A stretch of 64,000 nucleotides of DNA from Candidatus Omnitrophota bacterium (GTDB lineage Bacteria; Omnitrophota; Gorgyraeia; B26-G9), in NCBI GenBank assembly GCA_043805415.1, contig JAZDHZ010000007.1, forward strand, positions 29,786-93,785. Reading direction: 5' to 3'. The position numbers were made by a program, and so were the translations under genes. Each line of letters starts with the position of its first letter. Within the stretch, counting starts at the first letter, position 1. The notes beneath the pieces were generated by a model. It was not told where the DNA came from. It searched no databases and saw nothing but the letters and a program-made list of their open reading frames with translations. Shown one piece after another: positions 6,613 through 46,790 of the stretch.

Positions 6613-6676
6613 GTTAGCAGATAGATCCTTATTTGATGAATGTTAAATTAAATTTAAAATTATTGAGCGGGAAAAA

Positions 6677-7051: not shown

Positions 7052-7076
7052 ATATTTCCCTTTTAGTAATAAAGAA

Positions 7077-7964: not shown

Positions 7965-7986
7965 TTCAGTTTCTTCTGGTTTATCA

Positions 7987-10454: not shown

Positions 10455-10591
10455 AGATAAAAAGTAAATTTATGATACAGCTGTAATCGAAATAGTCGGA
10501 TTAAATACCCAAAGCGCACTTCTCGCGGAAAAATTTAATTCCATCCAAGAGTTGGGACTGTTAAGCGAATCCGCTTCAAAAAAAACACTAT

Positions 10592-16339: not shown

Positions 16340-16390
16340 TTACCCTGTCAGTATTCAAACAAAAACAACCTCAAAAAATCTTTAATAAAA

Positions 16391-23555: not shown

Positions 23556-24782
23556 TTAGCGCCCTCGCGCAATGACCTCAGATACAATATGGCTATTCCC
23601 ATCTGCCTTTTTACGCCAGAATTCTGTGTTCACACCGAAAAACCCGTTAAGAATATCCCCAGGATATTTTTTCGTTTTTTGTCTGAGCAAAGATGTTCCC
23701 ATGCTTCTGGCCAAGCAGGAAATTAACTGACGATGCCAAAACCAGTTATCTCCCTCTATCCGGCCTAAAACACAAATATCACTGCCTGACTTTAGGTTAT
23801 TATAAATAAGCCGCGCATTATCCGCCAAGTATTGTCCGTCACCATCCATAACAATAAAATACACTGTGTTTACCAGTTTTATCGCCTCACAAACACTTAC
23901 GGTTAGTCCTTTAATTTTTTTATCTTTCCCATCCAGGAGTTTAATGTCACTGCATATGCTCTGGGTTGCCATAATAATCTCAGTAGTTTTATCATTGGAA
24001 CCATCCTCGACGCAGATGATGGTTGCCCCAGGATATTGTGATATAAGATTGTTAAGAACAGGTTTAAGCTTATCTTCCTCGTTGTTTAGGGGAATAATCA
24101 GGGTTAAATCTTTACAGCTTTTTTCCAGAGGTAAACATTGTTTATACGCAGTAATAAAAAGATGGAAATTGAAAAAAGAAAAATCAGTCCATATTTTAAA
24201 ACCATTAATTTTAACTATACTCCGAAGTGATTTAGGAGAGAAATGCTGAATATGACCGCATTGTTTTTTATAGTATGCTGAACCGCAAAAATAGCTCTGA
24301 TATAATACCTGGAGAGAGAAAAACATCTTCCATAGACTAAACGGAGTATCATGCGGTACAGAAAGCACAATCACTCCCCCTGGCTTTAATATCCGATACA
24401 TCTCTGCTAATACCAGATCTATATCCGCTATATGCTCAAGCGTTTCCGTAGAAACAATAATATCGCATGAGTTATCGGCTAAACCGCTATTAGCGATATC
24501 CGCGACGCTGAAATCAGTCAGCCTGCCTTGATTCTTGCCGTGGATCAAAGAATTCTCGTTCAGATCGACCCCGATTACCGGCAAACGATCCGGATTCCAA
24601 CAGCAGCTGGCTGAGCCAAAATCAGCAATAACTTTACCCGGCCGATAAAAGCCCTTAACTAATGAACGGATAATCCGATAACGGTTCCCATGAAGCCACC
24701 GCCTAAACGGATTACTACTTTTCACCTGATCATCGTAAAAAGTATTTTTTATTGTACTATAAAATTTCTTTGTATCAAGCAT
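23556..24782 (-). CDS. fusion: class I SAM-dependent methyltransferase + GT2 (Dpm1/ArnC-like polyprenol-phosphate glycosyltransferase-type) domain
   Basis: The N-terminal part (VIADFGSASCCW...LKPGGVIVLSVP) is a Rossmann MTase. The C-terminal part (LTLIIPLNNEED...CVEDGSNDKT...IVMDGDGQY) has the GT2 DxD, DGDGQ ~ DADLQ. Confidence 0.7.
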   Translation of the reverse strand: MLDTKKFYSTIKNTFYDDQVKSSNPFRRWLHGNRYRIIRSLVKGFYRPGKVIADFGSASCCWNPDRLPVIGVDLNENSLIHGKNQGRLTDFSVADIANSGLADNSCDIIVSTETLEHIADIDLVLAEMYRILKPGGVIVLSVPHDTPFSLWKMFFSLQVLYQSYFCGSAYYKKQCGHIQHFSPKSLRSIVKINGFKIWTDFSFFNFHLFITAYKQCLPLEKSCKDLTLIIPLNNEEDKLKPVLNNLISQYPGATIICVEDGSNDKTTEIIMATQSICSDIKLLDGKDKKIKGLTVSVCEAIKLVNTVYFIVMDGDGQYLADNARLIYNNLKSGSDICVLGRIEGDNWFWHRQLISCLARSMGTSLLRQKTKKYPGDILNGFFGVNTEFWRKKADGNSHIVSEVIARGR

Positions 24783-26748: not shown

Positions 26749-27735
26749 TTAAAATTTCTTTAATCCGTTAAAAATAGCTCCGAGCTTAAGCGAATATATA
26801 AAATTAAGCTCTAAAGTAGTTGTGCATAGACAATGTCTGCAATTTACAGATACTACTTTCTTAAATTCTTCTTCTATGCTCGTTTGTGTAAAAGGCGACT
26901 TATTTGTTTTATCATGCGTCATTTGGCAAGGATATAAATAGCCATTGCTATTTATTCGCGCGTAGATTTTACCCGCGCAGCAAGTAATATTCCTGACATT
27001 AGGATAAGCATACATATATTTTAATGCTTCAATTGAATTTATAATGTTTTTATTTTTCTTTTTTTTATTTATTAAATATTTTAAAATCACTTTTTTTTGC
27101 GTATTAGAAAGCGCATATGAAGATATATCCTTATCCCCGGATAAAAACGCGTTAATGATTTGAAATTTTACCGGAACTTTTAATTCATTAGAAACTTTTA
27201 AAATATAGTCTACCTGATCCACATTCCCTGCATGTAAACTGCAATTTAAAGTCATTTTTATTCCATTACTCCTGGCAAGCTCTAAAGCTCTTAATACTTT
27301 CTTATGAGTCCCTTTACCCCTTAGGCTATCATGCGCGTTCTCATTACCATCAAAACTTATTTTAACCATGTCTGAGAGCTTTATAACATCAATTTTCTCT
27401 TCGAAAAGAACTCCGTTAGTAAGCACTACCGTACTAATACCCCTTTGCTTACATAGCGTTAATATCTGTCCCAGATCATCTCTTAAAAGAACCTCCCCCC
27501 CGCCAAAATGTATTCTTTTTGTTCCCAGAGCCCATAGCTGTTCTATTCCTTCGCAAACTTCCTTTGTTGAAAGCTCAATCAATGGCTCAATTTGAGGAAT
27601 CTTACAGTATTTACAATCTAAATTACAGCGATAAGTCAAATCCCATCCAACAAACAAAGGAATTCTACGGCGCAACAAAAATGCTTTAATGAATGAATAT
27701 ATTATCAAGATCCTTTTCGAAACTTTACTAAACAT
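26749..27735 (-). CDS. radical SAM/SPASM-domain protein
   Basis: CNLDCKYCK is present. C-terminal Cys motifs CCAGK...YPCQM...CRHCLC. Confidence 0.8.
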   Translation of the reverse strand: MFSKVSKRILIIYSFIKAFLLRRRIPLFVGWDLTYRCNLDCKYCKIPQIEPLIELSTKEVCEGIEQLWALGTKRIHFGGGEVLLRDDLGQILTLCKQRGISTVVLTNGVLFEEKIDVIKLSDMVKISFDGNENAHDSLRGKGTHKKVLRALELARSNGIKMTLNCSLHAGNVDQVDYILKVSNELKVPVKFQIINAFLSGDKDISSYALSNTQKKVILKYLINKKKKNKNIINSIEALKYMYAYPNVRNITCCAGKIYARINSNGYLYPCQMTHDKTNKSPFTQTSIEEEFKKVVSVNCRHCLCTTTLELNFIYSLKLGAIFNGLKKF

Positions 27736-27743
27736 AAGCTTTT

Positions 27744-28727
27744 TCAGGTTATGATCTTTTCTATTGAAGCCAAGACCTTTGTTTTAAATGACATTAAATA
27801 ATTAAGCTCTAATGATCCGCAAAAACCGCATCCGTTACAATGCACTTCCGGCAATCTAGCCAGTGCTTCTTTTACGCTCAAGCTTGTAATATTAGGCAAT
27901 TCTCTATCATAGCTAATTCTATCACAGGCACACATTTGGCCATCCGGATTTATAATGCAAAAAATCCATCCAGCATAGCATTTTAGCTTTTTGTATTTCG
28001 GACAGTTATATACATGCCTCAGCCCCAACAGGGAGTTTCGGATATTTTTATTACCGGATAGTTTTTTAGATATAAGCCCATCAATCGCTTTTTTAAAATA
28101 GCCCTCATCAGGAATAAGCTCATCTATATTTTCTAAGCCTCGGTATAATTTTTTAAGCGGCTGAAAAGCAACAATAGTATTATAATACTTTGCTATTTTA
28201 AGAATTTCATCCAACTTATCAATATTGTACTTAGTCAGAGTAGTAGTAAACCCAAACTTTATGCCTTCGGTTACACAAGCATCCGCAGCCTGCATAACCT
28301 TACGATATGAGCCATTACCTCTTAAAAAATCATGGCTATCTTCAGGCCCATCCAGGCTAAGCTTAATGAAATCAAGATATTTAAGTAATTTTATTTTTTC
28401 TTTTACCATAACTCCATTGCTATTCATTTCGGAGTATATCTTCCTCAGACTCGTATGTTTTAATATTTTCTCAAAATCATCTCGCAGCAATACATCTCCC
28501 CCGCTATAAGATATTCTTTTTGTTCCCAGCTTAGCCAGGGCATCGATACCTTTGGCTACAGTATCAAAATCAAGTTCATCACAGTGAGTTTTCCATACAT
28601 TGCAGTAGCGGCATCGCAATGTACAGCGATTTGTCAACTGCCAGCGCACAGCTAAAGGAACGCGTTTCCTAAAAAACCGGCATTTCCCGATTGACCAGAG
28701 GCATAATATTTTATCTTTAGTTCTCAT
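27744..28727 (-). CDS. radical SAM/SPASM-domain protein (paralog of 26749..27735)
   Basis: CTLRCRYCN is present. C-terminal Cys motifs CYAG...CACD...CNGCGFCG. The start was trimmed to the internal Met (MRTKDK), which avoids a 53-nt overlap. The start is uncertain. Confidence 0.75.
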   Translation of the reverse strand: MRTKDKILCLWSIGKCRFFRKRVPLAVRWQLTNRCTLRCRYCNVWKTHCDELDFDTVAKGIDALAKLGTKRISYSGGDVLLRDDFEKILKHTSLRKIYSEMNSNGVMVKEKIKLLKYLDFIKLSLDGPEDSHDFLRGNGSYRKVMQAADACVTEGIKFGFTTTLTKYNIDKLDEILKIAKYYNTIVAFQPLKKLYRGLENIDELIPDEGYFKKAIDGLISKKLSGNKNIRNSLLGLRHVYNCPKYKKLKCYAGWIFCIINPDGQMCACDRISYDRELPNITSLSVKEALARLPEVHCNGCGFCGSLELNYLMSFKTKVLASIEKIIT

Positions 28728-30996
28728 TATCTTTTCCCTTACGAATAGCCGCGGGCATTGTCCCGGCAACCCCCCGGGGCTTTTTATCTCTTGGCTTTAT
28801 TTTTATAAATCTTCTTAGCGAGAGTTTCAAGACAAGAGCAATCGCCTCGCGAAATATCTCAAGAGAAATTTTCGATCTTCCTCTTTGCCGTTCACAAAAA
28901 ATTATCGGGATTTCCTTTATACTCGCCGCGATGTTTCTTATCGCACATAGCGATTCAATCTGAAACGCGTATCCTTTAGATCCGATATGCTCCCAGTCAA
29001 TTTTTCGCAGTAAGGACCGTCTATAGCATTTATATCCTGAGGTCACGTCGCTAAAACTTGTCCCCAACAAAAGGTTTACTCCCCATTTTGTTGTCTTGGA
29101 AATAAGATTTCTCCAAAGCCTTCGGTTCTTAATACTCACCCTGCGTAAAAATCTTGAGCCTAAAACCAGATCATAAAAACAGGCATAATAAAGAAATATC
29201 GGCAAATATTCAGGATCATGTGAAAAATCAGCATCCATTTCAAAAATATAATCAGCATCAATATTACTCAATATATACTTAAATCCATTAATATATGCTG
29301 TTCCCAATCCCTGCTTTTCGGCTCTATGTATAACTTTTATTCTTTCATCGGCTAAAGCCATCTCTGTTGCTAATTTCCCCGTACCATCAGGAGAATTATC
29401 ATCAATAATTAGAATAAACGCATTACTCAAAACATTATGTATCTTATTACAAATAAGCCGGATATTGTCTTTTTCATTATAGGTAGGCATCACTATTGCT
29501 ACTTTTTTTTCTTTGGCACTTTTGAGAAAATATTTACTTTGCGACAGCATTCCCGCCGCTTCAGCAGTGTCGGTGAAAATCAAAGCATAAAACTTAACTT
29601 TCTGGATAAAAAAGTTAATGCCTGCCCTTAAATAACGCCGCAACTCAGTGAAAGACTTTAACCGAAACAATAACTTTGCTATAGTCTTAAAACTAAAATA
29701 GAATTTGAAATAAAATTCCTGAGTTAAAGAAAGAATCTCCTGTTCGGTCAAACTACTCCAGGGAGTTGGTAGCCGCTGTTTTAGTTCATTGCCTAAAACA
29801 TGCTCTTGCCACAGATCAATCCCAATTGTCTTGTTTAATCTAAGATGCAATTCGGTTCCGGGTTTCGCGATAACCTGACAAACCTGAATAAAATCAAGAT
29901 CTAATATTTTCGCGAACTTTATCGTCTCTCTAACCGAATCAGGGGTATCCCCTTCGTTCCCGACCATAAAAAAGCCCATTGTTCTAATTCCATATTTTTT
30001 CGTAAGGAAAATTGCCTTTTTGACATCGCTGATAGAAATTCGCTTGTTTATGTTATTTAAAACGCTCTGGTTTATCGATTCAATCCCGTAGTAGATCTGG
30101 CGGCATCCGGCATTTCTTGCTGCCTCCAGAATTTCCGCGTCAACAAGATCTACTCGGCTGCGGCATGACCACTCAAGATCCAGATTCAGTTCTTGCAGTT
30201 TTCTCATTATTTCCAGACTTCTTGTTTTATCCATAAAAAATATCGCGTCAAAAAAATCAATTTCCCGAATATTGTATTCTCGATAACAAAACTCTATCTC
30301 ATTAACTACACTCTGAGCTGCGCGAATACGATAAACACTTGGAATCGCGCAAAAGACACAAGTAAATGGACACCCCGTACTTGTAAGCATTATTGTGAAA
30401 TTTTTTCTCTGTGAGATAAAAGAATAATACTTCTCATTAGCCAAAAGATGACGCGCTGGATACGGATAATCATTAAAATCGAAAATTTTCGCATCCGGCT
30501 TATTCACAATTACCTTATTATCTTTCTGCTTGTAAGCAATGCCGGCAATACCGGAAAGATCTTTATTTACTGAAAGAGCTTCCAGCAATTTTGGTAAAGA
30601 TTCTATCGCCTCACCGATAACCCCATAATCAATTTGAGCATGCGACATAGTTTCTTCCGGATAGAGTGTCAGGTTAGGCCCGCCGGCAAACACGGGTTTT
30701 TTGAGTTTGCTTTTCAAAAATCCGATCCACTCAAGCGCATCATGAAAATGATAAGTTTCCGCTCTAAAACCCAGGATATCCGGATTAAATTCTGTTAATA
30801 TCTCAAGTGCCTGCTCTTTCCCAACTGCAAGCGCACGCGCATCTAAAATTTTTACAATATGCCCATGCTTTTCAAGAATAGCGGCAACATAAGCCAATAT
30901 TATCGGCGGAGCAAAACAGAATTCTTCATCAACTACCTGAAGATTTTCTGAAAAAATTTTATGATTATATGGCGGATAAATCAGCGCAACACGCAT
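28717..30996 (-). CDS. fusion: cobalamin-binding radical SAM (N-terminal) + Dpm1/GtrB-like polyprenol-phosphate glycosyltransferase GT2 (C-terminal)
   Basis: The N-terminal half has a B12 domain and CPFTCVFCAIPS. The C-terminal half (VAIVMPTYNEKDNI...IIDDNSPDGT...EMDADFSHDP) is the classic Dpm1/ArnC signature (DAD.SH). Confidence 0.8.
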   Translation of the reverse strand: MRVALIYPPYNHKIFSENLQVVDEEFCFAPPIILAYVAAILEKHGHIVKILDARALAVGKEQALEILTEFNPDILGFRAETYHFHDALEWIGFLKSKLKKPVFAGGPNLTLYPEETMSHAQIDYGVIGEAIESLPKLLEALSVNKDLSGIAGIAYKQKDNKVIVNKPDAKIFDFNDYPYPARHLLANEKYYSFISQRKNFTIMLTSTGCPFTCVFCAIPSVYRIRAAQSVVNEIEFCYREYNIREIDFFDAIFFMDKTRSLEIMRKLQELNLDLEWSCRSRVDLVDAEILEAARNAGCRQIYYGIESINQSVLNNINKRISISDVKKAIFLTKKYGIRTMGFFMVGNEGDTPDSVRETIKFAKILDLDFIQVCQVIAKPGTELHLRLNKTIGIDLWQEHVLGNELKQRLPTPWSSLTEQEILSLTQEFYFKFYFSFKTIAKLLFRLKSFTELRRYLRAGINFFIQKVKFYALIFTDTAEAAGMLSQSKYFLKSAKEKKVAIVMPTYNEKDNIRLICNKIHNVLSNAFILIIDDNSPDGTGKLATEMALADERIKVIHRAEKQGLGTAYINGFKYILSNIDADYIFEMDADFSHDPEYLPIFLYYACFYDLVLGSRFLRRVSIKNRRLWRNLISKTTKWGVNLLLGTSFSDVTSGYKCYRRSLLRKIDWEHIGSKGYAFQIESLCAIRNIAASIKEIPIIFCERQRGRSKISLEIFREAIALVLKLSLRRFIKIKPRDKKPRGVAGTMPAAIRKGKDNEN

Positions 30997-31007: not shown

Positions 31008-32702
31008 TTACCTACTCTCTTTGTTTAAGTTTTCAAAATCAGCAACTATTTTTTTAGCATCTATGACTATGTACTTTTTATCTTTAAAAACTATTTTTGA
31101 ATCCGGAAACTCAAGCAGAGCAAAGCGTTGTTTTTTGTTATTATTAATAATTTTTCCAATAAACTCATTATAAGGCGCGAAATAAAAACTGTCTGACTCT
31201 AGGTATTCAGCAGTAAAATGCTCACGATCAACCACAATATAATCTAGTTTATAAGTCTTTGAAAGCTTATAAATCTCTTGTTTTGACGCAGCATAGTATG
31301 CGGTAAAAAAATCATATGTGCGCTTACTTATTTGCGCATAATATTTTTGCTGATACGGAATATCTGCTTCCTGCATTATAAGTCCTTTGCGCAAGGCAAA
31401 AACCGTAATATCATCCATAACCTCTGGGTGCGCCGCGATAAAAGTATCTTTGGGCGTCTTGCCCAAAAATTCATAAAGCTTAATACCTTTGTCCGCTTTA
31501 TTGCTGAAAGAATAAGCATTTTGCAAATAAGGCAGAAAAGCAAATAAAACAAAAAGGCTTAAAGAAAAATGTATTATTGCCCTTTTTCCTGGGTTTTTCG
31601 TTAAATTACTGATCAGCCTTTGGATATTTAGACTAACAAAAATAATCAGCACAAACAAGAACGTATACCGCATATATCGCTCCGGCTCAAACAATTTCAG
31701 CATAAATATACGCGCGAGACAAAATAAAAATAAACCGCATAACAGCAATATCCATAACTCAGAACGGATCTTAAACGCCTTTTTCCCCATTAGAATCACC
31801 AGCAAACACGCGGCAAAAAATAATCCTGTCTTTGCTCTATCCAGACCCAGCCCGCTTCTATAATTTGTAATGCTTTGAAAAAAACTATCATAAAAGACAG
31901 GCAGCCTTCCCTTACTGCTGAACTCAGCCATTTGTTTCATCTCGCTAAGATTAAATACCGGTCCAAGTTCATCCGGAGGATTAAAATACTTTGGAGCTAT
32001 TAAACAAACAGCCACCAGGATAACTCCTGAAAAAACGATCCATATTTTTCTGTTTTTAATAAAACTGAGTGATTTTTTCGAAAACCTAGTCGCTGAAAGC
32101 GGATAGGTTAAAGCCGAAATAATAAACAGCGGCGGATATATGAACACTTGCGCTATCATTACTATTCCAGTTTTAAGATAATCCTTTTTTAAGAAATAAA
32201 AAATAAACATTAGCAATAAAACCGGATGGAATGCTCCCGCTCCGCCTTCTCCAAACCAGACATCTGAGAAAGCGAATGAACGCTCTGTATACCACGCGCT
32301 AAGAGTAACCAAAAAAGATACCCACAGCCCTGTTGTATTATTTTTAAGATAACAACCAATATGATAAGCAAATAGAGCAGAGATAGCTCCCAGAAAAAAA
32401 GGCAGAATTTTAACTACCGCAAGCGGGTTAAAAAATCGCCCGGATACATAATAAAAAGCCTTAAGGCCAATAGGTATTTTCCAATTTTCATAAACTAAAT
32501 GCAGATCACCTCTAAAAAGCTCACTATCTGCCAAATGCGCCATCCAGATAATGCTTTCTCTTGTATCTTCATGAACAGCGTATTTATTAAACAATAAATA
32601 AGACTGCGCATTAAAACATATCAATACCGCAAATACAACTACCGCAATTCGCATGATACATTTCTTATGGCTTTTTATTACTCCGACACCGGCATCTTGC
32701 AT
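31008..32702 (-). CDS. polytopic membrane protein with C-terminal soluble domain, function unknown
   Basis: A 564-aa ORF with multiple TM helices. The likely true start is the internal MRIAVVVFAVLICF (~32654). Confidence 0.5.
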   Translation of the reverse strand: MQDAGVGVIKSHKKCIMRIAVVVFAVLICFNAQSYLLFNKYAVHEDTRESIIWMAHLADSELFRGDLHLVYENWKIPIGLKAFYYVSGRFFNPLAVVKILPFFLGAISALFAYHIGCYLKNNTTGLWVSFLVTLSAWYTERSFAFSDVWFGEGGAGAFHPVLLLMFIFYFLKKDYLKTGIVMIAQVFIYPPLFIISALTYPLSATRFSKKSLSFIKNRKIWIVFSGVILVAVCLIAPKYFNPPDELGPVFNLSEMKQMAEFSSKGRLPVFYDSFFQSITNYRSGLGLDRAKTGLFFAACLLVILMGKKAFKIRSELWILLLCGLFLFCLARIFMLKLFEPERYMRYTFLFVLIIFVSLNIQRLISNLTKNPGKRAIIHFSLSLFVLFAFLPYLQNAYSFSNKADKGIKLYEFLGKTPKDTFIAAHPEVMDDITVFALRKGLIMQEADIPYQQKYYAQISKRTYDFFTAYYAASKQEIYKLSKTYKLDYIVVDREHFTAEYLESDSFYFAPYNEFIGKIINNNKKQRFALLEFPDSKIVFKDKKYIVIDAKKIVADFENLNKESR

Positions 32703-34004: not shown

Positions 34005-35567
34005 TCAGAGGCTATCCGGTTTATAGTAAAGTACCTCCACTCCATCCCATACAAATCTACTTTCTTTCTCTAATTTATAATTTTTTTGTAAACCCAACTT
34101 AAGCTTGCGCATATTTTCTCTGCCATACCAATCAGGAGACACAACTATCCAAAAGGCATGCCGCCGAACAAGGGGATTAAAAACCTCATCACAATTAGCT
34201 GGTATATTTCCTAATTCAAAGCCTGTAATTAAATTATCCTTATCGTAAAACTCTTTAACCCATTTATCATTAATCTTTCTAGTTTTCCCAAAAAAGGAAT
34301 CCCCGATATCTTTCAGCTGCCTTGGTTCATTATATTTATAGTAATACCAGAAAGGTGTGATCTGCGCCATCGGAAAAAATACTATAGAATCTCCTTTTTG
34401 CATATTCTTCTTAACTAAAAAAGCAATCTCTCTCCAAGAGTCCTGGTTAGGCGCATAATAATAATAAACTAAATTTATTGAATAACTTAAAACAAAAAAA
34501 CCGATAAGCAACCTGCTTATGTCCTTTCTTAATGACAAAAACATCCGTCCAACTAGCAAACAAAATGCAGGGAGAAGAATAATAGCGATTTTACTCCACC
34601 GGCTAAAAGCCACAAACAAATTTACTATCCCAAAAATCCCAAACGGAATAAAAAACCATAAAATAGTAAAACCATCATTAAATTTTATCTTTTGTTCACT
34701 TTTCCTTTTGCAAAGCAAAAATCGCAAAAAAACCAAATAGGTTAAGCCCAATATCATGTAGAAACCGCATTTTGTAATCCATGGTCTATTGGTATCTAAA
34801 TATCCTCCCACCCCTGCTTGCGATAATACTCTTCCGTAACTAAAATCTTCTATTAGCATTTTAAAAATATTTTCATTAACAATCGGGCAATACTTATCAT
34901 TCTCTATTTCAATATTATAATGGTTAAGCACCGGGATAAGCAGGATTGATGCTAACAGGATTATAACTGCCTGCATAGACATCCAGCGTTTTAAATCAAT
35001 TTTAAACAAAAACAAAAAACAATTTGTTAACAGAAAAACCATACCGCCAATAAAAGGATTTGTATACACCAGCATAAGCAGACTTACCGGATAGGCTATC
35101 CAATAAAATAACTTCGGTTTACGCCTTAGCTGCAATAAGCAAAATGCTGTGCTGATAAACAGCAACATTGCTAAGGAATACCACCTTGCTTGTTGACTAC
35201 GAATCACATGGTAAGCTGATAAAGCGAGCAATAAAGCGCAAAATAATCCTATTTTTTTATTAAATAATAGCTTGCCTAAGCGGTATAGCATAATTATCGA
35301 TAGGGTCCCAAAAACCACAGACAGCATTCTAAGATTAAACTCCGTATACCCAAACAAAGATGCCCAGCACTTAACTATCATAAAATATAATGGTCTGATC
35401 GAATAATGATGGAAAAAAATAGTTCCCCAGTCTTTTTGCGCGAAAGCCACGGTAAATGCCTCATCAAGCCAAAGACTCTTGGCATCAAGCTTGAATACGC
35501 GCAATAAAAGCCCAAGCATAGTAATAATTAAAAGTGGAACATTAATTTTTCTAAATTTATGAATCAT
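34005..35567 (-). CDS. GT-C-fold glycosyltransferase, ArnT/PMT (GT39/83)-like, polyprenol-phosphate-sugar dependent
   Basis: The N-terminus LLRVFKLDAKSLWLDEAFTVAFAQ is the typical ArnT/PMT first-loop DE motif. It is followed by about 11 TM helices and a C-terminal periplasmic domain. Confidence 0.65.
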   Translation of the reverse strand: MIHKFRKINVPLLIITMLGLLLRVFKLDAKSLWLDEAFTVAFAQKDWGTIFFHHYSIRPLYFMIVKCWASLFGYTEFNLRMLSVVFGTLSIIMLYRLGKLLFNKKIGLFCALLLALSAYHVIRSQQARWYSLAMLLFISTAFCLLQLRRKPKLFYWIAYPVSLLMLVYTNPFIGGMVFLLTNCFLFLFKIDLKRWMSMQAVIILLASILLIPVLNHYNIEIENDKYCPIVNENIFKMLIEDFSYGRVLSQAGVGGYLDTNRPWITKCGFYMILGLTYLVFLRFLLCKRKSEQKIKFNDGFTILWFFIPFGIFGIVNLFVAFSRWSKIAIILLPAFCLLVGRMFLSLRKDISRLLIGFFVLSYSINLVYYYYAPNQDSWREIAFLVKKNMQKGDSIVFFPMAQITPFWYYYKYNEPRQLKDIGDSFFGKTRKINDKWVKEFYDKDNLITGFELGNIPANCDEVFNPLVRRHAFWIVVSPDWYGRENMRKLKLGLQKNYKLEKESRFVWDGVEVLYYKPDSL

Positions 35568-36124
35568 TTTAAAATAATCTCGTTTTGCTGAAGCATTTTC
35601 CGCGTATCTACTTCAATTAAAATAAACTTATCAATAAAAATTTTCCCTTCCATTTTCATTGTTTTCTGTTCCCAACAGGAATTCTTTGAATCCGCCCAAA
35701 ATCTTATTTTTGCTTTACCTTTGCGCAATTTCCAAAAAGGTTCCGCGCTAGGACTGCGGTATTCCCAGCGGCCCTGGCCATGCGGCAAATACCAGCGCTG
35801 CTCGGAAAATACATAATTATAATAATGCTTGCCTTGCGCGTCAGTAAGCTTAATATATATAAATGGACAATATTTACGCCATTGGTGATAGAGGCTTATA
35901 TAGAGCTGATAATATCCATCCTCAGGGATATCAATATTTAAAGTCTGAACAGCATTACTCTTGTCTGTGGCAATTGCCTGCCGGTCATCAAGCAAAACTT
36001 TCTCCCAATCACCGGTTGAATTTTTAATTAAAAAAGTAAGCGGCTGCTCAGCGGCATAAACCAAATCCGCTGCCGCGAATATAAACAAAACAATAAATCC
36101 GAATTTAATTATCCGCTTAAACAT
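35564..36124 (-). CDS. secreted hypothetical protein
   Basis: The signal-anchor MFKRIIKFGFIVLFIFAAADLVYA is present. The start was trimmed to this Met. Confidence 0.45.
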   Translation of the reverse strand: MFKRIIKFGFIVLFIFAAADLVYAAEQPLTFLIKNSTGDWEKVLLDDRQAIATDKSNAVQTLNIDIPEDGYYQLYISLYHQWRKYCPFIYIKLTDAQGKHYYNYVFSEQRWYLPHGQGRWEYRSPSAEPFWKLRKGKAKIRFWADSKNSCWEQKTMKMEGKIFIDKFILIEVDTRKMLQQNEIILK

Positions 36125-37226
36125 AATTAGGCAATTCCGGATATGTATTATTAGCCGGCATCTCCCAGTCCATGGACACATCCGCTATCCTATCTCCTTT
36201 AATCTCAATCATTGATTCTTTTATCTGGCCTAATCCCTGCTGATAAGCTAAACGCAGATGTTTAACATACCAGGGAACGCCAAGATCTTTATTCTTAGGC
36301 CGCGGCTGCCAATTCCTTGTGATAATCCGCGTAGCCGTGGCGTCAGTAGCCACAGGGTCAAAGCCGGCAATCACCAAAGCCCCTCCCAGAATCGCGCTGA
36401 TATCAACTGTTTTACCGCCTAAAAATTTAACCACGCCTTCGCCTTGCATTCCATAAGCGCCGCTGATTACTGTCAGGCGGGGTTTTATCCCTTTATTTAT
36501 ATCCACGATAACTTGATGGATTCCGGCTTGATGCAATTTAGCTCTTGGCTCGCCATAAATCACGGAAGGCATTATTCCCATGAAGTTTTTCATGCCAAGA
36601 GTAACTGAAATCGGCCAATGATGCGTTTTAAGCACCGCGATTGAAATAACGGTATCCGCTTTTTTAACAATGTCCGGGATCGCTAACCAATCGAGCTTGC
36701 TACACGATGGAACATAAATAAATGATTTTGTATGTTCCCGCAGATTGATCAGCGACACTTTATTCCCGTATTTTTTATTTATTTCCTCAATTAATTTTTT
36801 TACTTGCGCGCCTTCAATATTTTTTTTCCCTTGCCATAAAATATTAAGCGGCCGTTCAATCCATTCCCCGATAATAACATGCTTAGCTCCGGCTTTAACA
36901 CATTCGCGAGCGACTGCCGCGACAACCTCCGGATGCGGTATTTCACCTGCGGTAACCGGATCATGCCCCATCAAGCCGCCGGTAATATAATTTGGCTTGA
37001 TAAAAACAATCTGCCTTGGTTTAACAACTTTTCCCACACCGCCGATTATCGCCAAAGCCTGTTCCGTAGTTTTTCTAATATCATTACCTTTAATTACCCC
37101 AACAATGCTCGGAGAAATTATCGTCTCTTTCCCATAAATATATTCAGGCAATAGCGCTTGGGCGGCTAATCCCGCGCCAAAGCCCAGGCTTGTCTTAACA
37201 AATTCTCTTCTGGTGAATTTCTTCAT
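36117..37226 (-). CDS. Tat-signal (twin-arginine) exported protein, DUF362-like?, function unknown
   Basis: The N-terminus MKKFTRREFVKTSLGFGAGLAAQA matches the S/T-R-R-x-F-L-K Tat consensus. Confidence 0.5.
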   Translation of the reverse strand: MKKFTRREFVKTSLGFGAGLAAQALLPEYIYGKETIISPSIVGVIKGNDIRKTTEQALAIIGGVGKVVKPRQIVFIKPNYITGGLMGHDPVTAGEIPHPEVVAAVARECVKAGAKHVIIGEWIERPLNILWQGKKNIEGAQVKKLIEEINKKYGNKVSLINLREHTKSFIYVPSCSKLDWLAIPDIVKKADTVISIAVLKTHHWPISVTLGMKNFMGIMPSVIYGEPRAKLHQAGIHQVIVDINKGIKPRLTVISGAYGMQGEGVVKFLGGKTVDISAILGGALVIAGFDPVATDATATRIITRNWQPRPKNKDLGVPWYVKHLRLAYQQGLGQIKESMIEIKGDRIADVSMDWEMPANNTYPELPNYV

Positions 37227-38149
37227 AAAAATAATGCTCGGTTATAGCGTTTTTTTCTAAGCGCCGGGAAATAATCATATATTTGCCGCAAAGCTTTAGA
37301 AGTATTCTTATTAAATAAAAGCATAAAAATGAATCGGGGTAATTCGTAAATAAAAAAACCGAATACAAACAGCAGCAAATGCTTCCAGCTCCCGTTTTTA
37401 ATCAGGAGAAAATATCTATTGCGAAAAGAAAGATACTGTTTAAACGGATCGCTATGCTCAGAACTTTCGCGGTAATGATAGGCAATAGCCGTAGGCACAT
37501 ACATAGCACTCCATCCGCGAATCCGCGCCCTCCAGGCCAAGTCAAAATCCTCGACTAAAAAAAAGAATTTTTCATCAAAAAATTCATCTTTATCCCGGAC
37601 AGCATCCAGTAATTCTTTTTTATAAACAGCCGCCGCGGCGCATGGACCGAAGATCTCAATTTGCTTATCAAATTTCTTACTATCAGCTTTAGCTTCTCCA
37701 ATATTGTAAAGCCGCATTAGCGCCGAGAACCGCAAGCCCAGGCTATCGATTGTTTTCCTATCCAGCCTAAGTAATCTGCCCTGCACCATGCCGACATGTT
37801 TGTGCTTATCAAGACAATCTTTTAAATCTCTAATGTATCCTTTTTCCAATATCACATCACTATTTAATGTAAAAATATAAGCCCCTTCAGCTTTAAGGAT
37901 CGCTTGATTATTAGCAGCGCAAAAACCGCTATTTATTTTATTTTTAATCAGCTTTATCCGATCCGAGTAATCTTCTAATATAGTAAGCGTCTTATCGGTT
38001 GAGCCATTATCCACGACAATAATCTCCATATCCTCAATTTGCTGTAAAAATACTGACTCAAGACAATCCTGTATAAATTTTTCAGCGTTCCATGTTACGA
38101 TAACTACGCTTACCTGAACCATCGTTTTCCTTAATCCCCTATTATTCAA
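37223..38149 (-). CDS. glycosyltransferase family 2
   Basis: VSVVIVTWNAEKFI, DNGSTDKT and TLNSDVIL (DxD-like) are present. Confidence 0.8.
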   Translation of the reverse strand: MNNRGLRKTMVQVSVVIVTWNAEKFIQDCLESVFLQQIEDMEIIVVDNGSTDKTLTILEDYSDRIKLIKNKINSGFCAANNQAILKAEGAYIFTLNSDVILEKGYIRDLKDCLDKHKHVGMVQGRLLRLDRKTIDSLGLRFSALMRLYNIGEAKADSKKFDKQIEIFGPCAAAAVYKKELLDAVRDKDEFFDEKFFFLVEDFDLAWRARIRGWSAMYVPTAIAYHYRESSEHSDPFKQYLSFRNRYFLLIKNGSWKHLLLFVFGFFIYELPRFIFMLLFNKNTSKALRQIYDYFPALRKKRYNRALFL

Positions 38150-38153
38150 ATTA

Positions 38154-39620
38154 TTATTTTGCTCTAAAATATTTTATTTCCAATAAAAATCGCCGATAAG
38201 CTTTTACAATAAACCCGGCAAATCCATAACGTTTAAAAGTCTCGATAACCCACTTTAAAAAACTGCGCTGTTTTATTTTTTTCTTTAAATATAAATGATC
38301 GCGGATAAGCAAAGCCTGCTGTTTTATTTTTTCTATCTGTCCATGATTATAGCTTGGATAGCTTATCATTGCAAAATTTCCGCCATCATAATCACAAAAA
38401 ACCGCTTTCTCGCGCAACAAATTATTCTCTAAGGCGGTGTTATAAAAAGGAGTTCCCGGCTGGGGAGTACAAATAGAAAGCTGCAATCCGTCTAAAAGAT
38501 CCTGTTTTATCAGATCTTCCATAAACTGAATTGTTTTAGTATCTTCAGCATAATCAGACCCTAAGGCTCCAAAAGTAAATGTTCCGTAAGTTCTTAAGCC
38601 GATCTTTTTAGCTGATAATAATGTGTCTTGAATATGGGTTAAATTCATTGGTTTATTTATCGCCCGCATAACCTTTGCGCTTGCAGTCTCAATCCCGATT
38701 CTTATCTTATAATATCCGGCTTTTTTCATTGCCAGCAGCACTGGTTCATCTAAGAACCGCACATCACACATCGCTTCATAATGCAGAGTATTCAGCCCGG
38801 CGTTTATAATCGCCTTACTTAATTGCAAAATAAATTCTCTATTGCCGTTATGGACTTCTTCATCAAAGAAAACCCCCTGCATTTGAGGATATTTTTCTTT
38901 CAGATAGGCGATCTCTTTAACAAGATCATCCACATTACGGCCGCGCCAATTAGCGCGATTATAGTAAACATGCCGGGCAACGCAAAAATTACACGCTCCC
39001 GGACAGCCGCGCGACGCGTACATTTGAATTTCACGGAATTCGGAACTAGGCTCACCAGGAACAGCATAATCCAGCCTGCTGACATCCTCATCTTCTGGCC
39101 AAGGCAGCGCATTTATATCAAGTAATGGTCTTCTTTGATTTGGATAAACCCCTAATATCATCGCTTGATCAGGGTTTTGGATCAATTCTAATACCGAATA
39201 TTCATATTCACCGATGCAGACATTATCCACTCCCTGCTCAATAAGCTGCTGGGGAAAAGCAGTAGCATGCTGTCCGACAAAGATAATCCGGCTGGCACAG
39301 TCCTTTTTAATGTCTAAAGCTAAAGCCAGATTTTCATCAATCATCCGCGTAGCGCTTTCAAGTATTAAAATATCCGGTTTTAAGCTTTTAATAAGTTCCG
39401 AATAATGGGCTCGATCCATTTTCAGCAAACAGCCGTCAATAAATTTCACCTCATGCTTAGTTTCTTTTTTTAATAAGCTGGATAGATAAGCCAGCTCCCA
39501 GGGATAATAAGCAAACCAATGCGATTTATCTTTTACCCCCTCAGACCATCTGCTGGGCGAGTGGATTATATAGTATCCGTTTTTATCAATTCCAATTGAA
39601 TTAGCGATAACTATCTTCAT
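38154..39620 (-). CDS. cobalamin-binding-domain radical SAM protein (class B)
   Basis: B12-binding N-terminal domain and CPGACNFCVARH. Confidence 0.85.
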   Translation of the reverse strand: MKIVIANSIGIDKNGYYIIHSPSRWSEGVKDKSHWFAYYPWELAYLSSLLKKETKHEVKFIDGCLLKMDRAHYSELIKSLKPDILILESATRMIDENLALALDIKKDCASRIIFVGQHATAFPQQLIEQGVDNVCIGEYEYSVLELIQNPDQAMILGVYPNQRRPLLDINALPWPEDEDVSRLDYAVPGEPSSEFREIQMYASRGCPGACNFCVARHVYYNRANWRGRNVDDLVKEIAYLKEKYPQMQGVFFDEEVHNGNREFILQLSKAIINAGLNTLHYEAMCDVRFLDEPVLLAMKKAGYYKIRIGIETASAKVMRAINKPMNLTHIQDTLLSAKKIGLRTYGTFTFGALGSDYAEDTKTIQFMEDLIKQDLLDGLQLSICTPQPGTPFYNTALENNLLREKAVFCDYDGGNFAMISYPSYNHGQIEKIKQQALLIRDHLYLKKKIKQRSFLKWVIETFKRYGFAGFIVKAYRRFLLEIKYFRAK

Positions 39621-40708
39621 ATCAGCCTGATTACTTTCAATAAATCCTTTGCGGTTTTTTCCAGAGAGTACTTTTCCAATACAGTTTTTCTTGCTTTTTT
39701 ACCCATAGCCTGTCTAAGATTCTTATCTTTGCACAGCAAAAGCAGTTTATTCACAAAATCATCTTTAGTTACTGCCAGCATCCCATTCTCACCATCAATA
39801 ATAATTCTTCGCGCTTCCGCGAAACAACTGGCAACAAAGGGTTTTTCCATCGCCATATACTCAAACATCCGCGTCGGACTCTTAGCTTTGTTAAATTTAG
39901 TATCCTGAATTAGCGGCATTATTCCAATATCTATCTGATTAAGATATTCCGGAATATCTTCCGGAGCCATCCAATCCTTAATTATTATCAAATCGCTGTT
40001 TAGCTGTTCCACTTTCCGCTTAACTTCGGAAACATAAACTCCATCCCCAAGTATCTCCAGTTTAATTCCGCTGACTTTATTCCTTAATATCTGAAAACAA
40101 TCAATTAAAAAATAGAGGTTTTCTAAATTATCCTTGCGATGCATGGTTCCAATCCAGGACAAGACAAGGCCGTGTTTTTCAATTAGCTGCTTTTCCGGCT
40201 TAAATATCTCTGTATCCACCGCAGTAGGAGCATAAATAACATTCTGATTATACGAAAGCAAAAAATCTTCTAAAAATTTACTCGCGCCAAGACATAAACA
40301 ACTCTTCCGGGCAATAAAACTCATCGCGGCATATGCCAGAGATTTAGGGAATCTTCCAAAATAATATTCTATATTTTCCCTTGCCTCCCAATCATCTAAA
40401 TCAAAAATCAGCTTTCTGTTTCTCAATAAGCTTACCAGTAAAGGAGCCAGGGAATGATAATTACAACGCTGCAAAAATAAGACAGCATCTTTATCCCATA
40501 GATATTTAAAAGCCTTTAGATTATAGACCATCTTATCAGCCAGAGACATTTTTGATTCCTCTTTACCGCTTTTTGCCCCTAAATTATCGGCAAAAGAAAA
40601 TATCTCTGTTTCAATACCCGCTTGATTTAAATACTTGGCAAATCCGTAACAGCGCACTCTTACTGCCGGCATTTGTTTACTTTCTCTGGTTATAAATATT
40701 ATTTTCAT
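39617..40708 (-). CDS. glycosyltransferase family 4 (GT-B fold)
   Basis: The GT4 C-terminal EX7E region FEYMAMEKPFVAS is present. The overall GT-B length is typical. Confidence 0.75.
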   Translation of the reverse strand: MKIIFITRESKQMPAVRVRCYGFAKYLNQAGIETEIFSFADNLGAKSGKEESKMSLADKMVYNLKAFKYLWDKDAVLFLQRCNYHSLAPLLVSLLRNRKLIFDLDDWEARENIEYYFGRFPKSLAYAAMSFIARKSCLCLGASKFLEDFLLSYNQNVIYAPTAVDTEIFKPEKQLIEKHGLVLSWIGTMHRKDNLENLYFLIDCFQILRNKVSGIKLEILGDGVYVSEVKRKVEQLNSDLIIIKDWMAPEDIPEYLNQIDIGIMPLIQDTKFNKAKSPTRMFEYMAMEKPFVASCFAEARRIIIDGENGMLAVTKDDFVNKLLLLCKDKNLRQAMGKKARKTVLEKYSLEKTAKDLLKVIRLI

Positions 40709-40714
40709 CTGATT

Positions 40715-42112
40715 TTATTTTATTCTTTGAAAAATTAAATACCCTTTTAGCGTCTTTATTTTATCCCATTTTTCAAAATCAATATTCATCTCGGAAGATA
40801 AAGGTAAAACCAGGTATTGCTGTTTATTTTTCGGTTCAATATCGGCAAACTCTTTGGGTAAATAGCAAAAATTCAACTGCGGCAATCCGCTTTCCATGGC
40901 AATAAAACTATGAAAGCCGGCAGCTTGTTTTTGAATATAAATCAAAGAATCAGCACTTGCGTTTTTCTGCAGCCAAAAGCTAGCTTCTTTAACCAAAACC
41001 GGGACTTCAGGTCTTTGAAAAAATCCTGCCTGCAATGATAGTAAGCAGATGATAACTGTCGCCAGCAACGCGTATATTTTGCGTTTTAAGTTCAGCGCTT
41101 TTAATCCGGCAATAAGGCCCCTGACTAAATAAGGAATAAGCAGGGCCGCGACAAAAAGCGATCCTTGCTCCAGAATTAATATTTCCTTGCGAAAAACATT
41201 CAAGCTAAGCAAAAATACTATAGAAATTACGCATAAAAGATATCCCAAATCCTTTCTCTTTTTCACAGCGGAAAATATCCCGATTAAACCCAGGAAAAAT
41301 ATCCGGGACTCAGGCTTTAAGAATAAACCCGCTAATATCTGCCGCATGGTTTTGCCGACTAAAAACAGAAAAGTATATAAACTATCCGCTTCGTGAAAAT
41401 TTTTATACCACAACCAACCCGGTCCATATTGTTTATCAACAAGAAAATTCCAAAATAACGGAAAGATACAACTTATCGCTAAAAAGAGAAAACTGTTTAG
41501 CAGCTTCTGCTTGAGACTTTTTTCCTGCTTCAAAAGAATATAGATAATTATCCCTGGAGCTGTCAGCCAGGCCAGATAACTATAGCCGCAAGCAATCAGG
41601 CAAAAAACAGCCCCCAGTAAATATTTTTGCTCAAACACCATCCACAAGCACAAGAATAAAAATCCTATCGCGATAACCTCAGGCATAGTCACAACACTCA
41701 TTATTATATGCTGATAATAACTATACAGCAAAACTCCGGAGAGTAACGCGATTTTACTGTTAAATATTTTTTTTACTAAATAGTAATAGGGGATTAATGA
41801 AAGACTGGAAGCAGCCGCGATGAAAAATCTGGCACTAACTATCTGCTCCGAACCAAGCTTAACCGCCCCGGCAAGACTATATAAAAAAAGCGGTAATTGC
41901 TGATAAAAAATATTCTGGAGAAAAGCCGGTTTAGTTAATATATGCAAAGCAGTAGTGATATTCAGCATCGGCTCTGGGCCATAAAAATTATCCGAGCTAA
42001 GCAAAAAAGCAAACCGGATAAGATAAGCATCGATAAATAAACAAATCGCTACGACCAGATGGTTTTTTAATAATAAGGCGTAAATGGAATTATATTGTGG
42101 TTTTTGATTCAT
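40715..42112 (-). CDS. polytopic membrane protein, probable GT-C-type glycosyltransferase
   Basis: 465 aa with more than 10 TM helices, embedded among ArnT-like genes. No soluble catalytic motifs were seen. Confidence 0.45.
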   Translation of the reverse strand: MNQKPQYNSIYALLLKNHLVVAICLFIDAYLIRFAFLLSSDNFYGPEPMLNITTALHILTKPAFLQNIFYQQLPLFLYSLAGAVKLGSEQIVSARFFIAAASSLSLIPYYYLVKKIFNSKIALLSGVLLYSYYQHIIMSVVTMPEVIAIGFLFLCLWMVFEQKYLLGAVFCLIACGYSYLAWLTAPGIIIYILLKQEKSLKQKLLNSFLFLAISCIFPLFWNFLVDKQYGPGWLWYKNFHEADSLYTFLFLVGKTMRQILAGLFLKPESRIFFLGLIGIFSAVKKRKDLGYLLCVISIVFLLSLNVFRKEILILEQGSLFVAALLIPYLVRGLIAGLKALNLKRKIYALLATVIICLLSLQAGFFQRPEVPVLVKEASFWLQKNASADSLIYIQKQAAGFHSFIAMESGLPQLNFCYLPKEFADIEPKNKQQYLVLPLSSEMNIDFEKWDKIKTLKGYLIFQRIK

Positions 42113-46240: not shown

Positions 46241-46790
46241 TTTTAGGCCTCAAAAGCAAAGCAGTATAAGCAAATATGCTTTGGCTAAAACTAAAACTAT
46301 TTTCAATATAAAAATCCTCAAGAAAAAGCTTCGCGAATTCATCGCTATGGCGCACATAGTGGCCGCGGTCAAAGTACCTGATCAACCAACCCAGAACATT
46401 CAGCCTTGAATCAGGATAAACCCCGTCCGCAATAATTGCCCTGCCGTTTTTACTTAAAATTCGCTTTATCCGGACAATAAGCTGCTTTGCCTGTTTGGCA
46501 CTCAGATGATGAAAAAAGCTTACAGATAGAACATAATCAAAAAATCCATCCGGATAAGGCAAGCCCTGACATACATCCTGTAATTTATAAGTCCCATCCC
46601 TTCTTTCGGCAAGTTTTCTCAGTACATTCCTGTCCGCGTCTAAACCAATATAATTTTCCGGAGCGAATCCCCAGAAATTTCCGGTTTTCCCGCAGCCAAT
46701 ATCGAGAATTCTCGTTTTGCTTTTAATCTCCATATTTTTAAAAGCAAATCGGGTGATCTGGTCATAACACTTTTTTAGAAGAATTTTCAT
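46233..46790 (-). CDS. class I SAM-dependent methyltransferase
   Basis: SAM motif I is ILDIGCGKTGNF and a post-I acidic residue is present. The protein is 185 aa. Confidence 0.75.
   Translation of the reverse strand: MKILLKKCYDQITRFAFKNMEIKSKTRILDIGCGKTGNFWGFAPENYIGLDADRNVLRKLAERRDGTYKLQDVCQGLPYPDGFFDYVLSVSFFHHLSAKQAKQLIVRIKRILSKNGRAIIADGVYPDSRLNVLGWLIRYFDRGHYVRHSDEFAKLFLEDFYIENSFSFSQSIFAYTALLLRPKND

Follow-up and report, generated by a model that had tools for sequence, protein, structure and literature searches.

What substrate does a radical S-adenosylmethionine (rSAM) enzyme act on when it is joined, on one polypeptide, to an enzyme that loads sugars onto a lipid carrier? This question is raised by a gene in a 64,000-nucleotide (nt) stretch of contig JAZDHZ010000007.1 (positions 29,786 to 93,785, assembly GCA_043805415.1) from an uncultured Candidatus Omnitrophota bacterium. 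We refer to this whole stretch as the window; coordinates are positions within it, and L- and P-numbers are labels of homologous loci and proteins. The gene encodes a class-B (B12-binding) rSAM module followed by a family 2 glycosyltransferase (GT2) of the polyprenyl-phosphate hexose synthase type. Each half belongs to a known superfamily; their fusion suggests radical chemistry on lipid-carried sugars bound for the cell surface. Class-B rSAM proteins are among the largest pools of enzymes without known substrates, and the Omnitrophota and Elusimicrobiota, in which the fusion occurs, have hardly any cultured members. Covalent linkage to a polyprenyl-phosphate hexose synthase, which seems to have arisen more than once, offers a concrete and cheaply testable substrate hypothesis for this orthogroup.

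The gene is a single open reading frame (ORF) of 759 amino acids (aa) with an ATG start and zero internal stops. Its product carries three Pfam domains, each above its curated cutoff (PF02310, PF04055, and PF00535), and is organized as follows:

28717..30996, minus strand: whole fusion gene, 759 aa, comprising a B12-binding domain, rSAM core, helical C-terminal domain, linker, and Dpm1/Ppm1-type GT2 (from the ORF, Pfam, homologs, alignment, and AlphaFold2 (AF2) model)
30586..30909, minus strand: B12-binding Rossmann-like domain, aa 30–137 (PF02310, 61.9 bits, cutoff 32.1, profile positions 13–120 of 121)
29911..30387, minus strand: rSAM core, aa 204–362 (PF04055, 68.7 bits, cutoff 29.5; Foldseek matches)
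29578..29910, minus strand: C-terminal helical domain of the rSAM module, aa 363–473, common to the HpnJ and BchE models (NCBIfam alignment, conservation)
29506..29577, minus strand: interdomain linker, aa 474–497, variable in length and sequence except for a TDT motif (48-sequence alignment)
28801..29505, minus strand: predicted Dpm1/Ppm1-type GT2 catalytic domain, aa 498–732, free of transmembrane (TM) segments (phmmer against the PDB, Foldseek, homologs)

A first-pass annotation had read this ORF as a natural fusion and had named a frameshift near 29.5 kb, merging two genes, as the observation that would overturn it. The domain junction (residue 495, nt 29512–29514) falls at this point, and the check mattered because a frameshift beside an A-run divides murE on the same contig into two ORFs (4399–4839 and 3357–4337, minus strand; window 3357–4839). 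As murE is essential, this split probably reflects faulty sequencing or assembly of a homopolymer, and the contig is thus not free of indel errors. Across the linker of the fusion gene, which varies in the way expected of a genuine interdomain linker, the frame is unbroken in a 48-sequence alignment of the fusion family (the basis of all conservation counts given below), with a mean column identity of 58% in both flanking domains. A protein database search found an identical protein in an NCBI Omnitrophota metagenome-assembled genome (182-kb contig). More than 80 further full-length homologs (720–767 aa, 41–88% identity) with the same three Pfam domains stem from independent NCBI, JGI, ENA, and Logan assemblies of Omnitrophota and Elusimicrobiota. 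The AF2 model built from the family alignment reached a mean predicted local distance difference test (pLDDT) of 87.1 with both halves confident; its poorly modeled parts were a short linker segment (low pLDDT around aa 467–470) and the C-terminal tail (aa 733–759). The murE error and an in-frame stop within the fused gene of homolog L009 are the points in favor of an artefact joining two genes, or of a GT2 half reduced to a degenerate, noncatalytic remnant. Against them stand the single frame kept over the junction by more than 80 independent homologs, the invariant or nearly invariant catalytic and substrate-binding residues of both halves, and the confident predicted fold, which together make such an explanation exceedingly improbable. 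The fusion is confirmed as a real, conserved gene, and a frameshift merge is excluded. In the L009 homolog (3–1940), 59% identical over aa 93–729, a lone in-frame stop interrupts the rSAM module, for which pseudogene formation, a sequencing error, and recoding are candidate explanations; because of this stop, gene callers report a false stand-alone GT2 (P0121).

The GT2 half points to a lipid-linked sugar. Glycos_transf_2 (PF00535) matched at aa 501–666 with 87.3 bits (cutoff 23.3), and the catalytic domain was modeled with a GT-A fold at pLDDT values of mostly 85–96. A phmmer search of the PDB with aa 495–759 returned the dolichol-phosphate mannose synthase of Pyrococcus furiosus (PfDPMS) as the best match (5mlz, E = 1e-25, whole catalytic domain covered), followed by ArnC (2e-9) and GtrB (2e-4). 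Foldseek likewise placed DPMS (5mm1, E = 1.5e-14, 28% identity, root-mean-square deviation 3.4 Å), ArnC, and GtrB at the top, with other GT2 folds lower; we take these to be the three solved polyprenyl-phosphate glycosyltransferases. Searched alone, the GT2 half showed 44–52% identity to hundreds of stand-alone, TM-less proteins of ~240 aa, named polyprenol monophosphomannose synthase (NCBI) or dolichol-phosphate mannosyltransferase (JGI). PfDPMS functional positions were transferred to the family through the alignment of the GT2 half with PfDPMS, using the residue roles and the DAD motif definition given in PMC5526996. Three motifs were located in this way:

29218..29235, minus strand: DADFSH motif (D588-A-D590-F-S592-H593), equivalent to the metal/diphosphate site 89-DADLQH-94 of PfDPMS; D588, D590, S592, and H593 in 48/48, A589 in 43/48
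29098..29154, minus strand: GSR-to-IFH1 segment with R615, R629, and S633, equivalent to R117, R131, and S135 of PfDPMS, which bind the phosphate of the acceptor polyprenyl phosphate (48-sequence alignment)
28870..28890, minus strand: A-loop RQRGRSK with R703, G706, and K709, equivalent to R202, G205, and K208 of PfDPMS; 48/48, 48/48, and 47/48

PfDPMS E12, D39, D89, D91, and H94 correspond to E508, D532, D588, D590, and H593, each present in 48/48 sequences. The acceptor-phosphate residues are nearly as constant (R615 in 48/48, R629 in 47/48, and S633 in 37/48, the remainder being G or T), and in a hydrophobic-moment scan the GSR-to-IFH1 segment was the most amphipathic cationic stretch in the whole protein. 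The DxD or Dpm1 signature, whose absence on careful alignment would have spoken against the GT2 call, is therefore present: the family conserves the DAD, acceptor-phosphate, and A-loop residues, and no solved structure is closer than DPMS. Of the earlier label "Dpm1/ArnC-type", the Dpm1 part stands (PfDPMS, 1e-25) and the ArnC part does not. The fused GT2 scored 46.6–49.3 bits against the ArnC model NF007986 (cutoff 529), and neither a TM hairpin nor any other TM segment was found in the GT2 half. By sequence and predicted fold, this half is a TM-less Dpm1/Ppm1-type polyprenyl-phosphate hexose synthase rather than an ArnC-type enzyme, and homology suggests GDP-mannose as its donor sugar.

The rSAM half is less readily placed. 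Both structural hallmarks of class B are present, a B12-binding domain at the N-terminus and a CxxxCxxC motif in the barrel:

30349..30372, minus strand: CPFTCVFC, the CxxxCxxC [4Fe-4S] motif (C209, C213, and C216), invariant in 48/48

Foldseek matched this half to TsrM, MgmA, AprD4, OxsB, CysS, and TokK (E-values 3e-23 to 1e-16), which share the Rossmann-like B12-binding domain and the CxxxCxxC barrel at 14–21% identity; TsrM, OxsB, and TokK are cobalamin-bound structures among these matches. We know of no reliable sequence motif for cobalamin binding in the class. The best PDB sequence match of the rSAM core was AprD4 (6.5e-22), a cobalamin-independent dehydratase whose substrate is paromamine. 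Among NCBIfam models, HpnJ (TIGR03471, 185.2 bits, cutoff 577.6) and BchE (TIGR02026, 155.6 bits, cutoff 481) ranked highest, aligning over aa 28–466 of the fusion protein. The methylase models followed (PhpK 126 bits, MgmA-type 98.6, HpnR 85.7, and KedN5 31), and the rSAM half reached no curated NCBIfam family cutoff. HpnJ performs a ring contraction and BchE is the oxidative cyclase acting on Mg-protoporphyrin IX monomethyl ester in the anaerobic pathway; neither methylates. By predicted structure, we therefore place the rSAM half in class B, in an HpnJ/BchE-like clade outside any characterized family, and its sequence does not separate methylases from other chemistries. The helical domain conserves W396, R408, Y429, F432, Y433, and E451. 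The last helices of the module (aa 428–463) were cationic and amphipathic in the hydrophobic-moment scan, and no TM segment was found in the rSAM half.

How often did the two halves meet? Among 1.84 billion cluster representatives, 8,192 gave matches at E ≤ 1e-30. Only two of the best 150 of these were full-length fused proteins, P0002 from an Omnitrophota-type clade and P0085 from an Elusimicrobiota-type clade; the others were mostly stand-alone relatives of the rSAM half of ~470 aa (27–59% identity). Although rare in sequence space, the fusion thus defines a true family rather than an isolated case. The rSAM halves of fused Omnitrophota, unfused Omnitrophota, and fused Elusimicrobiota proteins form one orthogroup, with bootstraps of 86/100 for fused plus unfused Omnitrophota-type sequences and 78/100 once the Elusimicrobiota clade is included; unfused members are both basal to the fused ones and nested among them. 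The GT2 halves of the two fused clades show 33% mutual identity, compared with 40–50% of each to stand-alone Ppm1-type enzymes, and grouped together in only 2/100 and 0/100 bootstraps. Because the GT2 halves are not each other's closest relatives while the rSAM halves belong to one orthogroup, these trees point to repeated acquisition: the same rSAM family has probably gained a Ppm1-type domain on two or more occasions, and some lineages have since lost it again. P0121 (63% identity) was rejected as a true stand-alone GT2, as it starts inside the linker and L009 contains the whole fusion with a single in-frame stop.

Split forms and larger fusions in relatives extend this association. They also include a small rSAM protein encoded next to the fusion gene in the window:

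27744..28727, minus strand: small rSAM partner, ~327 aa from the ATG at 28727, whose start overlaps the stop of the fusion gene by 11 nt

Whether the B12-rSAM is fused or unfused, an ortholog of this protein (42–61% identity) follows it directly in L001, L004, L007, and L013, and another is found in the split operon of L014. Its solved relatives (SkfB, viperin-like enzymes, PqqE, and MoaA) gave no hint of its function. L014 (6001–13370) encodes B12-rSAM, small rSAM, Dpm1-type GT2, LPG_synthase_TM, and two PMT_2 proteins within 7 kb. Here, the stand-alone B12-rSAM ortholog (48% identity) is convergent to an operon of the other module genes, namely the two PMT_2 genes, the small rSAM, a TM-less GT2 of 246 aa (with MDADFSHDP and GSRF motifs), and the LPG_synthase_TM protein. 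In L037 and L019, a short GT2 lies directly upstream of a more distant B12-rSAM; the GT2 of L037 has the DPMS-type DAD-x-SH signature, and that of L019, with its C-terminal TM segment, is closer to GtrB. In P0026 (959 aa), a class-I methyltransferase is joined to the B12-rSAM and the GT2, giving a triple fusion. This methyltransferase is 37% identical (E = 7e-33) to a domain that, in L003, is fused to LPG_synthase_TM (14985–16598), so that P0026 and L003 form a chain of fusions linking the module to the membrane. Genes for LPG_synthase_TM proteins were seen repeatedly among the relatives, in L003, L005, L007, and L014. The contig of L014 is labeled Nanohalarchaeota and the family member P0044 is labeled Lokiarchaeia; on genes otherwise of bacterial type, such archaeal assignments suggest mis-binning or, possibly, transfer.

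The apparently independent fusions, the split operon, and the methyltransferase/membrane-domain fusion chains support a functional coupling of the predicted rSAM and GT2 activities. We hypothesize that the gene product is a bifunctional, peripheral-membrane enzyme. In a well-supported step, its C-terminal GT2 would move a hexose from a nucleotide sugar to polyprenyl phosphate at the cytoplasmic face of the membrane. The class-B rSAM module, together with the translationally coupled small rSAM, may then tailor the sugar while it is still bound to the lipid carrier; candidate chemistries are C-methylation, deoxygenation/dehydration, epimerization, and an HpnJ/Cds-like ring contraction. The tailored polyprenyl-phosphate sugar would next be flipped over the membrane, which the LPG_synthase_TM protein of relatives could do, and the PMT_2-type glycosyltransferases of fold C (GT-C) encoded in the cluster would use it as a donor on an envelope glycan or glycoconjugate. 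The fusion would thereby hold an uncommon radical tailoring activity at the site of substrate synthesis. A lipid-bound substrate is favored because the methyltransferase of relatives is membrane-anchored, the last rSAM helices are amphipathic, the nearest curated rSAM models are HpnJ and BchE, and HpnI/HpnJ and Cds offer precedents. HpnJ and BchE both act on membrane-bound hydrophobic substrates. We give an even chance to the full sequence in which a polyprenyl-phosphate hexose is made, radically tailored while lipid-linked, and fed to the five PMT_2 GT-C enzymes. The more specific proposal, that rSAM chemistry directly on the polyprenyl-phosphate monosaccharide yields a C-modified, deoxygenated, or carbocyclic lipid-linked GT-C donor, falls somewhat short of even. 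To our knowledge, radical tailoring at the level of the lipid carrier has no biochemical demonstration.

Several observations weigh against tailoring of the freshly loaded, lipid-linked sugar. The pTM (predicted template modeling score) of 0.66 makes the interdomain geometry, including any shared active-site face, unreliable. The metal-coordinating Gln of PfDPMS (Q93) was not found and is replaced by Ser592 in 48/48 sequences; the stand-alone P0140, named polyprenol monophosphomannose synthase, likewise reads MDADFSHDP, and DADxSH appears to be a normal bacterial variant rather than a loss of function. The trees are neighbor-joining trees of modest samples, and some short "stand-alone" GT2s probably represent pieces of a fused gene. 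The B12-rSAM is accompanied more constantly by the small rSAM than by the GT2. At 5/9 orthogroup loci in GTDB reference genomes no Dpm1-class GT2 lies within 6 kb, and L001 is syntenic with the window yet lacks exactly the GT2 domain. Beside the unfused orthologs of L001, L005, and L006, no Dpm1-type gene was found within 8–10 kb. Pathway enzymes are also often fused in Omnitrophota, as the 1399-aa and 982-aa rSAM fusions in the window illustrate, and multi-enzyme giant proteins of this phylum have been described in a preprint. Because Omnitrophota commonly fuse pathway enzymes, the fusion argues for a shared pathway and not for consecutive steps. The first-pass claim that the fusion "strongly implies" chemistry on the lipid-linked sugar or its nucleotide precursor is therefore too strong, given L001 and the five unfused loci, although the functional link it drew is supported by the fusions and the split operon.

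Co-localization or co-expression alone has a minor but real chance of explaining the fusion: the two activities would then serve the same envelope-glycan pathway on nonconsecutive intermediates, the rSAM acting on a later glycan intermediate, another lipid, or the polyprenyl chain, and the TM-less Dpm1 domain perhaps using its partner as a scaffold, comparable to the membrane domain joined to the Ppm1 catalytic domain in Mycobacterium tuberculosis. The mixture of fused and unfused forms in the rSAM tree, the one syntenic cluster that lost only the GT2 domain, and the abundance of multi-enzyme fusions in lineage and window fit this explanation, as does the known need of TM-less Dpm1-type enzymes for a partner (human DPM3, mycobacterial Ppm2 or domain D1). 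The apparent independent recruitment of different Ppm1-type domains by one rSAM orthogroup, by contrast, is difficult to account for unless a specific functional link exists, adjacency of GT2 and B12-rSAM recurs in other paralogous lineages, and an rSAM half without a TM segment is a poor membrane anchor. The order of events might also be reversed, with the rSAM modifying the nucleotide sugar (a GDP- or UDP-hexose might, for instance, be C-methylated or deoxygenated) before the GT2 loads it, so that a scarce donor is channeled; this we consider unlikely. Known sugar-tailoring rSAM enzymes do use soluble substrates (AprD4 acts on paromamine), the domain order rSAM–GT2 would match a reaction order of tailoring and then transfer, and a diffusible substrate more easily accounts for unfused orthologs without a nearby Dpm1-type GT2. 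Yet every donor and acceptor residue of a mannose-type DPMS is kept, at 44–52% identity to Ppm1-type enzymes, leaving the donor pocket not visibly altered. The associated methyltransferase is joined to an integral membrane domain in relatives, and the HpnJ/BchE-like models and amphipathic C-terminal helices suggest a lipid-bound substrate. Cutting across these explanations is the chemistry itself. Cobalamin-dependent C-methylation of the lipid-linked sugar or its precursor, a sub-case of either order of events, had been put forward as most likely; we found it not supported as such and rate its chance as small. Most characterized class-B rSAM enzymes methylate, TsrM, MgmA, CysS, and TokK are among the structural matches, and the B12-binding domain scores well above its Pfam cutoff. 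However, the non-methylating HpnJ and BchE models lead those of PhpK, MgmA-type enzymes, and HpnR (none at its cutoff), the best PDB sequence match is the cobalamin-independent AprD4, class-I methyltransferases already accompany the module in relatives, and the chemistries are not separable by sequence. The other B12-rSAM proteins of the cluster were no help on this point, as their best models were again HpnJ, BchE, or methylases of ribosomally synthesized and post-translationally modified peptides (RiPPs), all under cutoff.

If tailoring on the lipid carrier is correct, radical chemistry would join the short list of reactions on lipid-carrier-linked monosaccharides (ArnD, DprE1/E2), and the abundance of rSAM and GT-C genes in the envelope-glycan clusters of Omnitrophota and Elusimicrobiota would become easier to understand. 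Should it prove wrong, the fusion would still mark a conserved module of B12-rSAM, small rSAM, Dpm1-type GT2, methyltransferase, LPG_synthase_TM, and GT-C.

Known systems share parts of this scheme. The fused GT2 resembles PfDPMS (5mlz, 5mm1), Ppm1, and DPM1 in its GT-A GT2 domain, DAD motif, and acceptor-phosphate and A-loop residues, and it resembles type-II DPM1 and Ppm1 in lacking a TM helix at ~240–260 aa, whereas PfDPMS has four TM helices. It differs in following a class-B rSAM module of 470 aa and in the Ser that replaces the Gln of the PfDPMS motif DADLQH, a replacement also seen in stand-alone bacterial relatives. The Ppm1 of Mycobacterium tuberculosis (Rv2051c) contains a TM-less Dpm1-type domain that is fused to, or separate from, a partner of the same pathway depending on the species. 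That partner is an integral-membrane, Lnt-like domain, while the rSAM partner is soluble or peripheral and has no TM segment, so a simple membrane anchor does not explain the fusion. The ArnC/ArnD/ArnT system, and likewise GtrB and DprE1/E2, follows a similar logic, in which a GT2 makes a polyprenyl-phosphate monosaccharide, tailoring occurs on the lipid, and a PMT_2/ArnT-type GT-C acts on the outer face. Tailoring on lipid carriers is exemplified by ArnD deformylation and by DprE1/E2 epimerization on decaprenyl-phosphate ribose. The cluster in the window has Arn-like content, with five PMT_2 proteins, a DegT (ArnB-type) aminotransferase, and a genuine ArnC-like GT2 (52086–53042). Arn and DprE tailoring is carried out by a deformylase or an oxidoreductase, in contrast to the rSAM enzyme proposed here, with tailoring and transfer on one polypeptide; from ArnC itself, the fused GT2 differs by score and by the missing C-terminal TM hairpin.

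A closer chemical precedent comes from HpnI/HpnJ and Cds, in which a hexose already on a lipid is remodeled by an rSAM enzyme, with ring contraction to a cyclitol proposed (PMC13459092). Within the HpnI/HpnK/HpnJ set, HpnJ is the best-scoring model of our rSAM half, aligned at full length over aa 28–463, but a score of 185 against 577.6 bits indicates that the rSAM half is not an HpnJ; the hopanoid gene context of HpnJ was not found in the 64-kb window. HpnI and HpnJ are separate proteins, and the lipids of HpnJ and Cds are hopanoid and glycerol dialkyl glycerol tetraether, as opposed to the polyprenyl phosphate carrier proposed here. AprD4 likewise acts on a sugar, but independently of cobalamin. 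We know of no characterized class-B rSAM that is fused to a glycosyltransferase or acts on a polyprenyl-phosphate sugar. A literature search also returned no description of an rSAM enzyme acting on, or fused to the synthase of, such a sugar.

The fusion gene lies in a co-directional gene array of ~45 kb with six B12-rSAM proteins (including the fusion), nine other rSAM proteins, five PMT_2-type GT-C enzymes, two further large polytopic membrane proteins, several GT2 and GT4 enzymes, methyltransferases, and a Wzy_C protein. Beyond the small rSAM partner, its main features are:

23556..24782, minus strand: class-I methyltransferase–GT2 fusion, the GT2 having PfDPMS as its closest solved relative (E = 2e-9)
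26749..27735, minus strand: second small rSAM gene, a paralog 36% identical to 27744..28727 (Pfam, sequence comparison)
31008..32702, minus strand: polytopic membrane protein of 564 aa, 11 nt upstream of the fusion gene, with ~10 hydrophobic segments and no Pfam or NCBIfam match
34005..49555, minus strand: upstream part of the cluster, with five PMT_2 GT-C genes (34005–35567, 40715–42112, 43330–44847, 44831–46240, and 47855–49555) and genes for a DegT aminotransferase, GT4, B12-rSAM/GT2 pair, DUF362, methyltransferase, and rSAM/SPASM protein
52086..53042, minus strand: separate ArnC/GtrB-type polyprenyl-phosphate GT2 with two C-terminal TM helices (ArnC model, 218 bits)

PMT_2/ArnT-type GT-C enzymes take polyprenyl-phosphate sugars as donors, so a Dpm1-type synthase would have obvious customers in the cluster. 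The gene at 23556..24782 is a second fusion of a tailoring enzyme to a GT2 within the same cluster; together with a GT2–rSAM fusion beside the family member of L007, it adds to the case that the fusion is functionally meaningful. The substrate hypothesis had also been extended to the other orphan class-B rSAM proteins of the cluster, which overstates the case: these are only 24–28% identical to the rSAM of the fusion, and the only other one adjacent to a GT2 (38154–39620) adjoins a GT2 that is not of the Dpm1 type. This B12-rSAM/GT2 pair (38154–39620 with 37223–38149) and those of L001 and L008 were rejected as split paralogs of the fusion; their GT2s fall outside the Dpm1 type and did not match the fused GT2 half significantly, and their rSAMs are only 22–26% identical.

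A second polytopic membrane protein (632 aa, 13596–15494, minus strand) also had no significant Pfam or NCBIfam match, and its L001 ortholog (40% identity) had a weak YfhO match; both polytopic proteins may be unrecognized GT-C-like transferases. The window further encodes an AsnB-type amidotransferase (24813–26735), a DegT aminotransferase (42090–43337), and a TobZ/NodU-type carbamoyltransferase (50394–52085), all on the minus strand. With the numerous rSAM genes, they make up a tailoring repertoire reminiscent of aminoglycoside biosynthesis, but the context here is one of polyprenyl carriers and GT-C enzymes. A UPF0004 plus rSAM protein with the architecture of MiaB/RimO-type methylthiotransferases (20266–21465, minus strand) occupies an unusual place inside a glycan cluster and might hint at a methylthio-modified sugar. 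A protein of 1399 aa (56719–60918, minus strand) combines an N-terminal B12-rSAM with a second rSAM/SPASM module and gave the strongest HpnJ match of the window (269 bits); one of 982 aa (61032–63980, minus strand) combines an unassigned N-terminal region of ~630 aa with an rSAM/SPASM module. The glycan cluster abuts the division and cell wall (dcw) cluster (mraZ, rsmH, ftsI, murE, murF, and mraY), with a Wzy_C gene between them (502–8436, 8952–13215). The same juxtaposition of dcw and glycan clusters occurs in L008 (11956–18262), a relative from the Planctomycetota–Verrucomicrobiota–Chlamydiota (PVC) group. In Elusimicrobiota, a GT2 and a small rSAM lie upstream of the family member, as separate genes in L004 (7714–9820), where the GT2 has a Glyco_transf_21-like Pfam match, and fused as a GT2–rSAM protein of 714 aa in L007 (5860–8004). 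Downstream, these loci encode tetratricopeptide repeat (TPR) proteins and giant ORFs of 7181 and 13124 aa.

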